Shown here one piece after another: positions 49,510-51,921 of a DNA stretch of 64,000 nucleotides. A program made the position numbers and the translations under genes. The stretch lies in NCBI RefSeq assembly GCF_003018115.1, contig NZ_CP027457.1; one strand, written 5' to 3'. The notes under the pieces are model-generated. The model saw nothing but the letters and a program-made list of their open reading frames with translations. It had not been told where the DNA came from and did no database searches. The stretch is from Escherichia coli. GTDB lineage: Bacteria; Pseudomonadota; Gammaproteobacteria; Enterobacterales; Enterobacteriaceae. How positions within the stretch are numbered: position 1 is the stretch's first letter; each line of letters opens with the position of its first letter.

Positions 49510-49865
49510 GCACTCTCCTTGAGTTTTATGCAGGTGTTAATTAGCGGGCAATTGTACCCTGGTTAAGCCTCGGGTGGCAGCATCAGGTCTTGTATGGAAA
49601 AGCATATCTTTGTAAAGCGGAGGTAATTGCTGGCCTTCAGGCGTGGGCAAACCGCGGCAAGTGGCGATCGAGTTAATATTTGCGTAGCGAAAATATTTAA
49701 AAATTGATTTAAATCACGTTAACCAGGATTCTCAATGCAACTTCTAAATTAATCCAGATCAATAAAGGGTGAATTATCATATGTAATGTGATCTATGTAG
49801 GATCATTTGTTACTCCAATGTAGGTATATTCGTCACGTTTTTATAACCATAACGACGGAGCGGAT

Positions 49866-50519
49866 ATGAAAAAGTTAACAGTGGCGGCTTTGGCAGTAAC
49901 AACTCTTCTCTCTGGCAGTGCCTATGCGCATGAAGCAGGCGAATTTTTTATGCGTGCAGGTTCTGCAACCGTACGTCCAACAGAAGGTGCTGGTGGTACG
50001 TTAGGAAGTCTGGGTGGATTCAGCGTGACCAATAACACTCAACTGGGCCTGACGTTTACTTATATGGCGACCGACAACATTGGTGTGGAATTACTGGCAG
50101 CGACGCCGTTCCGCCATAAAATCGGCACCCGGGCGACCGGCGATATTGCAACCGTTCATCATCTGCCGCCAACACTGATGGCGCAGTGGTATTTTGGTGA
50201 TGCCAGCAGCAAATTCCGTCCTTATGTTGGGGCAGGTATTAACTACACCACCTTCTTTGATAATGGATTTAACGATCATGGCAAAGAGGCGGGGCTTTCC
50301 GATCTCAGTCTGAAAGATTCCTGGGGAGCTGCCGGGCAGGTGGGGGTTGATTATCTGATTAACCGTGACTGGTTGGTTAACATGTCAGTGTGGTACATGG
50401 ATATCGATACCACGGCTAAGTATAAATCTGATGGTCGTAAACTGGCTAAAGGCAGTTATAGCGACAATGTACGCCTTGATCCGTGGGTGTTTATGTTCTC
50501 TGCAGGGTACCGTTTTTAA
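49866..50519 (+). CDS. ompW: outer membrane protein W
   Basis: 217-aa ORF with signal peptide MKKLTVAALAVTTLLSGSAYA and C-terminal aromatic beta-barrel signature (SAGYRF). Confidence 0.93.
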   Translation: MKKLTVAALAVTTLLSGSAYAHEAGEFFMRAGSATVRPTEGAGGTLGSLGGFSVTNNTQLGLTFTYMATDNIGVELLAATPFRHKIGTRATGDIATVHHLPPTLMAQWYFGDASSKFRPYVGAGINYTTFFDNGFNDHGKEAGLSDLSLKDSWGAAGQVGVDYLINRDWLVNMSVWYMDIDTTAKYKSDGRKLAKGSYSDNVRLDPWVFMFSAGYRF

Positions 50520-50524
50520 TTTGC

Positions 50525-50558
50525 TCTGCAAAACCTCTGCAAAACTCTTCTGCAAAAC
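50525..50558 (+). repeat. three direct repeats of tctgcaaaac immediately after the ompW stop (putative attL / integrase-binding region)
   Basis: tctgcaaaac at 50525, 50536 and 50549, followed by ctggtca..tgaccag hairpin plus T-run overlapping the int stop. Confidence 0.5.
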
Positions 50559-50564
50559 TGGTCA

Positions 50565-51695
50565 TCAAATGACCAGTTTTTTCCATTCCTTACCGCGTGC
50601 GTCGTTGTAAATATCGGTCATTTTTTGATTCGAATGGCCCAGCAAAATTTTGGTATCAATTCCCTGTTCTCTGAACAATCGTTCTGATAAAGATCTCTGC
50701 TCATGGAAAGAGGGTGGGGTGCCATTAGCACGCCAGTTGTAATCCACAGAATCCCGGGCTTTTTTAAATGCAACGGTTAACGTTGCTGGCTTAACCATCC
50801 CGCCGCGCTTAGCTGTCCCTTTAGCATGATGGTGGTGCAATAGCCACGGACTAAGAACGCAATCGCGACAGGATGACACCACATCATCCAGGGTGAGATT
50901 TAATTTATCGCAACGCAGAGCCAGAGGGATGGCAATCCGGGTTCCTGTTTTTTGCTGTTCGACATGAAGATAACCATCCCTGATATCCGAAAATTTCATT
51001 TTGCAAATATCTGAAAGGCGCTGGCCTGTCATCAGTGCCAGCAGCATACCACGCTGTAAAAAGTAACCATCCTTTTCCGCTGCATTATAAATCATCATCC
51101 ACTCATCAAAGGTCAGTCGTTGCCGTGATATCCGTACCTGTGGTTTTTTTGCCGATTCTGCAGGGTTAAAGCCTGGCGGGACATCGCCCGTTTGCTGGGC
51201 CTCCCGGAAAACATCAATCAGTACTTTCCTGAAAATTTGTCCCATTCTGTTATGTCCTTTTGCCTTGTAATCTTCCAGCACCGATACCACATCTTTTACG
51301 GTTATGGCATCTAAAGGTCTGGTACCAAAACGTTCATCAAATACCCTGAGAGGGGATGCTTTCTGTTTCAGTGTGTTGAGTTTGATCTCTCCGTTTTCAT
51401 ATCTTTCCTGTTGAATTTTTCGGTAACTATTCAGAAAAACCGAAACGGTTGATGAACCACCGGTATCACGAATAATTTTCTCCTGCAGAGTGAGCATTTG
51501 TTCCATTTGTTGCCTGGCAAGACGGCTGTTCGCTTCTGCTGCAATAGCTTCTGCCTGTTTCTGGTCAATACTGCCGAGCCCGTGATTTTTTCCTGTTATG
51601 GGATGCCTGTAACGCCAGTAAACTTTGTTATTTCTTTTGTCAAAATACGGAGATAATCCCGGAACTTCAGTTTTATATTTTCGTGGGCGCGCCAT
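50565..51695 (-). CDS. int: phage integrase (tyrosine recombinase, lambda Int-like)
   Basis: 376-aa ORF; N-terminal arm-binding-like region, C-terminal catalytic region with R...HxxR...Y pattern (HEQRSLSERL...LGHSNQKMTDIY). Confidence 0.9.
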   Translation of the reverse strand: MARPRKYKTEVPGLSPYFDKRNNKVYWRYRHPITGKNHGLGSIDQKQAEAIAAEANSRLARQQMEQMLTLQEKIIRDTGGSSTVSVFLNSYRKIQQERYENGEIKLNTLKQKASPLRVFDERFGTRPLDAITVKDVVSVLEDYKAKGHNRMGQIFRKVLIDVFREAQQTGDVPPGFNPAESAKKPQVRISRQRLTFDEWMMIYNAAEKDGYFLQRGMLLALMTGQRLSDICKMKFSDIRDGYLHVEQQKTGTRIAIPLALRCDKLNLTLDDVVSSCRDCVLSPWLLHHHHAKGTAKRGGMVKPATLTVAFKKARDSVDYNWRANGTPPSFHEQRSLSERLFREQGIDTKILLGHSNQKMTDIYNDARGKEWKKLVI

Positions 51696-51921
51696 CTTCC
51701 AGTATCCTCTTCAAAGCAGGGTGATCTGTGGCGATCACTTCCGGCTTGTTTACCATTCCGACAAAGCGAGCTCGAGGATCCACTCGCCAGTGTCTTCCAA
51801 CTTTTTTGGGGAGAGGAAATATCATTCCGGCTTTAGCGTATTTACTTAACGTGCCCGGAGTCGGGACCGGGTCACTGAATTCCTCTTTTGCCCACTCAGT
51901 GAGAAGAATAAGTCTTGCCAT
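51673..51921 (-). CDS. xis: excisionase (Xis-like)
   Basis: 82-aa ORF overlapping int start by 23 nt; lambda-Xis-like winged helix (EWAKEE...IFPLPKKVGRHWRV). Confidence 0.8.
   Translation of the reverse strand: MARLILLTEWAKEEFSDPVPTPGTLSKYAKAGMIFPLPKKVGRHWRVDPRARFVGMVNKPEVIATDHPALKRILEDGAPTKI

Follow-up and report, generated by a model that had tools for sequence, protein, structure and literature searches.

A divergent ompW 3' end at the left junction of a lambda-like prophage in Escherichia coli

Prophages in gene ends and the ompW junction

Integration of e14 and of phage 21 in icd is well established (see also Bobay et al. 2013, PMC3603311). In these systems the 3' end of a protein-coding gene is targeted, and a diverged substitute end keeps the open reading frame intact. 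The ompW gene is the site of the lambda-like PPompW prophages of STEC and EPEC described by Nakamura et al. (2021, PLoS Pathog, PMC8112680; GenBank LC567818-LC567841), who reported integration with a 121-bp "att/duplication" and assigned integrases to PPompW at >90% identity and >90% coverage. Here we analysed a stretch of 64,000 nucleotides of E. coli DNA (contig NZ_CP027457.1), referred to below as the window, in which the end of ompW lies next to phage genes. We are highly confident that this region is the left junction (attL) of a lambda-like PPompW-family prophage integrated in the ompW 3' end. The gene and the two parts of its divergent end are as follows.

49866-50519, plus strand: chimeric ompW open reading frame, 217 aa (list of open reading frames, match to OmpW PF03922, comparison with PDB entries)
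50414-50468, plus strand: phage-supplied codons 184-201, covering the outer end of beta-7, the L4 tip and the outer end of beta-8 (low identity to K-12; AlphaFold2 model)
50469-50519, plus strand: phage-supplied codons 202-217 and stop, covering the membrane part of beta-8 and the C-terminal signal ...GYRF (protein identical to the native one)

The window gene was compared with ompW of K-12 MG1655 by pairwise alignment, with positions counted on the alignment. The 5' UTR is 100% identical, codons 1-173 are 98.8% identical (of the 6 mismatches only F20Y, in the signal peptide, changes an amino acid), and positions 50386-50413 are again 100% identical. At 50413/50414 identity breaks, 50414 being the third base of codon 183. 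From there to 50468 it is 36%, a 15-nt insertion included. It recovers to 92.5% over 50469-50521, where all 4 differences are synonymous, and past 50521, after the stop codon, the sequences are unrelated (about 33%). Codons 1-183 are of host origin, and codons 184-217 plus the stop (34 codons) come from the prophage. F20Y is the sole non-synonymous difference from K-12 within the host-derived part; codon 20 (49923-49925) reads TAT (Tyr) where K-12 has TTT (Phe), just ahead of the signal-peptide cleavage site.

The protein of the window ends in ...TTAKYKSDGRKLAKGSYSDNVRLDPWVFMFSAGYRF after 217 aa, and that of K-12 in ...TTANYKLGGAQQHDSVRLDPWVFMFSAGYRF after 212 aa. The reading frame continues through the phage codons up to a stop, neither beta-8 nor the terminal GYRF deviates from the native protein, and the chimeric protein matches the OmpW family PF03922 from end to end (1-195/195, E 2.7e-78).

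A preliminary description of this DNA had stated that the last ~35 codons of ompW differ from K-12 while the rest matches. This observation is confirmed, and the 35-residue peptide it quoted (T183-F217) is correct, but the start it gave for the divergence, 50440, has to be moved 26 bases upstream, to 50414. It had also suggested that the C-terminal end was supplied by a phage, and that identity to native ompW should be followed toward the stop codon. Identity is lost at the break given above and does not continue through the stop. The phage-supplied reading is supported, as the break falls exactly at the attachment core, int and xis adjoin it, and the native end is found at the attR of a related chromosome, that of E. 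coli JNE151685.

Attachment core, integrase and the displaced native end

Five features define the attachment region and the genes beside it.

50386-50413, unstranded: common core CAGTGTGGTACATGGATATCGATACCAC, 28 bp (three-way alignment of the window attL, the JNE151685 attR and the K-12 attB)
50524-50558, plus strand: three direct repeats (C/T)TCTGCAAAAC in the P' arm (repeat search)
50554-50582, unstranded: perfect 12-bp hairpin AAAACTGGTCAT/ATGACCAGTTTT flanked by A and T runs (inverted-repeat search)
50565-51695, minus strand: tyrosine integrase of the lambda type, 376 aa (Pfam Arm-DNA-bind_1, PF09003, 5.7e-22; Phage_integrase, PF00589, 6.8e-17)
51673-51921, minus strand: excisionase, 82 aa (Pfam Exc, PF07825, 4.9e-07; excisionase annotation in the co-linear genome)

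When attR was sought within the window, only one copy of the beta-8 sequence was present there, which means that attR lies outside the window, and it was therefore taken from JNE151685. Positions 29870-64000 of the window (about 34 kb) form one co-linear block with the chromosome of that strain at 99.33% identity, and JNE151685 has an annotated lambdoid prophage of about 53 kb that reaches from ompW to yciE. Its far end, adjoining yciE, holds a 126-nt fragment annotated as "OmpW family, missing N-terminus" (L003, 32566-32691), and the K-12-like 3' end of ompW is displaced there by about 53 kb. The displaced native end for the long-tail prophage is thus seen in a 99.3% co-linear relative, beyond the source window. 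An integrase next to ompW was present in all five of the long-tail lysogens inspected, and the annotation of another genome shows one too.

The comparison of the two junctions locates the crossover. The window attL is host-like as far as ...GATACCAC and phage-like beyond, and the JNE151685 attR is phage-like ahead of CAGTGTGG... and then K-12-like, with the native loop, beta-8, stop and native terminator. Only CAGTGTGGTACATGGATATCGATACCAC is identical across attL, attR and attB, so strand exchange must fall within these 28 bp. A perfect dyad inside the core, GTGGTA (50390-50395) and TACCAC (50408-50413), has the layout expected of Int core-type sites and may represent them; the exact positions of Int cleavage would lie within the core.

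One could also imagine that the phage recombines further downstream, in a 23-bp block of beta-8, GATCCGTGGGTGTTTATGTTCTC, and supplies the last few codons, in which case the changed loop would be host sequence. This block is identical in the phage tail and in native ompW, and PMC8112680 treats the whole 121 bp as att sequence. We give this possibility practically no credence. At attR the native loop stands with the native beta-8 and at attL the phage loop with the phage beta-8. This arrangement places the exchange ahead of the loop, within the 28-bp core, and refutes an exchange in the beta-8 block; moreover, an attP record, CP025907.1, carries the phage loop.

Directly past the new ompW stop come int and then xis, both on the minus strand, followed by an 823-aa open reading frame that is annotated as an exonuclease in co-linear JNE151685. 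The motif TCTGCAAAAC is present in 3 exact copies in the window, where 0.29 would be expected, and a fourth copy, found in the P arm at some 120-130 bp to the left of the core, is kept in three otherwise diverged P arms. The occurrence of the repeats in both arms, together with the lambda Arm DNA-binding domain of the integrase, suggests that they are candidate arm-type integrase binding sites. In the lysogen E. coli 2013C-4465 two of the three TCTGCAAAAC repeats are left as a result of a 13-nt deletion, and its integrase is annotated as a longer open reading frame that overlaps the ompW end.

The hairpin overlaps the int stop codon. Its RNA fold has a calculated energy of -18 kcal/mol (z = -5.7 versus shuffles). 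A simple consensus terminator scan made no call at 50554-50582, and we infer a terminator function from the fold calculation, which supports the hairpin. It would be a putative phage-supplied terminator for ompW, taking the place of the native one between ompW and yciE, and it probably also terminates transcription of int on the opposite strand.

Other elements were seen nearby. Within the prophage, three Rfam matches score above the gathering score: isrK (60495-60569), C4 antisense RNA (60595-60679) and the sok antitoxin RNA (61388-61562). In the co-linear genome hokD is annotated beside sok; this is ordinary lambdoid cargo. In the gap between yciC and ompW, at about 49541-49630 (by co-linearity with L002, 19672-19761), a 90-nt pseudogene fragment of a "YkgJ family cysteine cluster protein" is annotated in related genomes. 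Nakamura et al. (PMC8112680) traced one intra-prophage attB sequence to the ykgJ-ecpE region.

In the mechanism that we propose, the attP would consist of a P arm, the 28-bp core (equal to ompW codons 174-183), a 106-nt surrogate ompW 3' end, the three arm-type repeats, the terminator hairpin, int and xis. Int-mediated exchange in the core would join codons 1-183, from the host, to 34 codons and a terminator from the phage, and because this fusion keeps the reading frame, ompW stays an intact, full-length open reading frame of the OmpW family. The native 3' end would move to attR, as a fragment lacking a promoter. The surrogate 3' end keeps the beta-8 membrane strand and the C-terminal signal and encodes a different extracellular tip between beta-7 and beta-8.

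Much of this layout resembles lambda, which also has an Int with Arm and catalytic domains, an Xis, an attP directly beside int, direct repeats in both arms (three in P') and a short core identical to attB. The lambda core lies between gal and bio, whereas the core of the window is inside coding sequence, and the P' arm of the window, unlike that of lambda, has a coding portion of 106 nt; the binding sites here are predicted from sequence. The icd systems of e14 and phage 21 share with the window the targeting of a gene end and its replacement by a diverged substitute, but they differ in target gene and integrase lineage, and in the window the substitute adds 5 codons and alters the exposed loop of an outer-membrane protein.

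The PPompW family and its two tail types

Over 50386-51700 the window has 93.8% nucleotide identity, at 100% coverage, to the intE region of the LC5678xx records. By the published thresholds this places the window element in the PPompW family. The published prophages have the ompW site, the core and the order of tail, three repeats, hairpin, int and xis in common with the window. When both ends of their 121-bp "duplication due to insertion" were aligned, the duplication proved to be imperfect and of the same kind as in the window: the same 28-bp identical core is followed by the phage ompW end at attL and by the native one at attR. What was published as a "121-bp att" is in fact a 28-bp identical core plus an imperfect duplication. 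The published members have a short tail encoding TAKYKSGVTTVKDSVRL, and their OmpW stays at 212 aa. The window has a 136-bp version with 15 extra bases, a 217-aa OmpW and an L4 tip that is longer and more basic.

A separate extrachromosomal record, CP025907.1 ("Escherichia phage 204576"), contains an uninterrupted P arm, core, ompW-like tail, three repeats, hairpin and int. From this intact attP it is directly evident that the ompW-like codons belong to the phage, at least in the short-tail type. The long tail was searched by DNA and protein in 50,697 phage records, with no free-phage or attP record found, and the long-tail attP was therefore reconstructed from attL and attR. The tail matches among these records were short-tail PPompW records, phage 204576 and a piece of attR in P-EibA. 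The latter, AF151091.1 (prophage P-EibA of ECOR-9), has an ompW attR at 1501-1621, made up of P arm, core, native ompW 3' end and yciE-side chromosome. As this old and partial record ends in an ompW attR, which is unannotated, P-EibA was also integrated in ompW. The integration site and the mechanism were already known; what the window adds to the PPompW family is a member with the less common long tail, which had not been remarked on before.

Both tails are found in many E. coli strains. Of 5,426 complete genomes, 1,701 (about 31%) have the phage-side ompW junction. The short tail, which gives the 212-aa protein in EDL933, O145:H28 strains, AR_0058 and phage 204576, is present in 1,479 (about 27%), and the long tail, encoding TAKYKSDGRKLAKGSYSDNVRL, is the rarer one with 161 (about 3%). 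The two tails have the first ~20 phage bases after the core in common and differ in the loop.

The origin of the tail was addressed by a scan in which the C-terminal 70 residues were compared with one genome per species for 100,044 species, and the best 80 of 244 matching stretches were translated. Native OmpW ends fall into two classes, a short-loop class that is K-12-like and a long-loop class, for example KYKSNGAVLPAGRYSDNVRL, which occurs in E. albertii, E. whittamii, cryptic Escherichia, Citrobacter amalonaticus, C. sedlakii and Pluralibacter. A minority allele of E. coli itself, in strain FDAARGOS_1252, is also native and long-loop, with 217 aa. The tail of the window has the length of the long-loop class. 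The loop residues of the window, DGRKLAKGS, were absent from the best 80 of the 244 stretches; indeed neither the long-tail nor the short-tail phage loop was found among these stretches in native ompW of the species representatives. The closest tail among the matches listed is that of Citrobacter sp. On2M, with 82% nucleotide identity. With the window loop in none of the best 80 stretches and the closest tail among them at 82%, the phage copy appears to be a homologue of a long-loop ompW end that diverged long ago and not a recent capture.

The existence of native 217-aa long-loop alleles, in E. coli FDAARGOS_1252 and in the Escherichia, Citrobacter and Pluralibacter species named above, lends some plausibility to another explanation, namely that the host itself has this C-terminus as a natural allele, or as a patch recombined from a long-loop ompW lineage, and that the neighbouring prophage is a coincidence. 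The peptide of the window is in none of these native alleles, even that of On2M being no closer than stated. The break also coincides exactly with the att core, with the native tail sitting at attR. Furthermore, a synthetic query of the long tail joined to K-12 downstream DNA was covered in both parts by none of the 5,426 complete E. coli genomes. A host allele is thereby largely refuted, and we consider it very unlikely. Two observations on the divergent allele itself may be added. In FDAARGOS_1252 (NZ_CP069528.1), which is prophage-free and whose ompW has about 85% nucleotide identity, trpA directly follows ompW, and yciE, yciF and yciG are apparently missing. AR_0058 has the same divergent ompW gene body, joined to a short phage tail.

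Returning to the phage-supplied end, its variation within each type is nearly all silent. Two long-tail sub-lineages differ by 6 bases, all synonymous, and the short-tail variants show 2/0 and 5/1 synonymous/non-synonymous changes, which gives 13 synonymous to 1 non-synonymous difference within tail types. In the beta-8 part, both phage tails have only silent changes compared to K-12 (4 and 3). The near absence of amino acid changes within types indicates that the phage-borne codons evolve as translated sequence under purifying selection.

The altered loop of OmpW and its meaning

All amino acid differences between the phage-supplied tail and K-12 fall within residues 185-201, and residues 202-217 are identical. 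They comprise N185K, L188S, the replacement of GGAQQH by DGRKLAKGSYS, and N201 in place of K-12 S196. The tip of the phage beta-7/beta-8 hairpin is 5 residues longer than the native one and more basic. An AlphaFold2 model of the chimeric OmpW, built on 77 Enterobacteriaceae sequences (mean pLDDT 81.8; 84-89 over the C-terminal region), has an 8-stranded barrel with beta-7 at 169-188, the tip at 189-195 (DGRKLAK), beta-8 at 196-216 and the L3 helix at 137-141. Across the 77 sequences VRLDPWVFMFSAGYRF is nearly invariant. The L3 helix is extracellular in the crystal structure and was proposed as the contact for colicin S4 (PMC2649078). Barrel topology, together with the extracellular L3 helix, places the beta-7/beta-8 turn of the model outside the cell, as loop L4. 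Compared with the E. coli OmpW structures (PDB 2F1T, 2F1V and 2MHL), the mature protein of the window is identical through residue 184 and in the final 16 residues, and its predicted fold is likewise an 8-stranded barrel with an L3 helix; it differs solely at the tail (N185K, L188S, N201 and the beta-7/beta-8 tip). Indirect evidence, in the form of this confident barrel model and the 13 synonymous to 1 non-synonymous differences within tail types, suggests that the chimeric OmpW would fold and function normally.

Does the changed loop serve the phage? Possibly, recoding of the loop is not a neutral by-product, and lysogeny alters an exposed epitope of OmpW in a way that would shield the lysogen against a phage or colicin that targets this protein, or against re-adsorption of the phage's own progeny. 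In the AlphaFold2 model all amino acid changes are confined to the tip of the extracellular hairpin. There are two phage-specific loop alleles, each conserved at the protein level, and neither was seen in native ompW among the best 80 of the 244 stretches. OmpW is in fact a receptor, for colicin S4 (PMC2649078) and for phage RB68, which uses it in K-12 and was described as the first known case of OmpW use by an E. coli phage (bioRxiv 10.64898/2026.04.02.716166). In O157:H7, RB68 uses OmpF in place of OmpW, and O157:H7 carries the short phage tail. BL21 shows the same behaviour, however, and its ompW tail is native, and we have dropped the idea that the phage tail is the cause of RB68 not using OmpW in O157:H7. 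The proposed colicin S4 contact, moreover, is the L3 helix and not L4, which speaks against escape from this colicin through L4. L4 also varies among the native OmpW proteins of different species, so that a relaxed constraint on the loop suffices to explain the difference. Use of OmpW is not known for any lambdoid phage. All in all, we regard receptor remodelling as improbable. The simplest reading is that the phage need only keep OmpW foldable, which would constrain beta-8 and the C-terminal signal and leave the loop free to differ.

If receptor remodelling were nevertheless true, about 30% of E. coli strains would have a phage-encoded L4 that alters their susceptibility to OmpW-targeting phages or colicins, or that prevents the re-adsorption of progeny phage. 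This would amount to lysogenic conversion without an extra gene, a cost-free change of the host surface by the prophage. Work that relies on OmpW, be it for receptor studies, as an antigen in vaccines or for typing, has to consider that L4 comes in two phage-encoded forms. In current records the displaced attR fragment is annotated as a pseudogene and the chimeric gene plainly as ompW. The finding matters mostly for annotation and typing: in about one third of the complete E. coli genomes OmpW is a chimera, of which the last 34 codons are phage.
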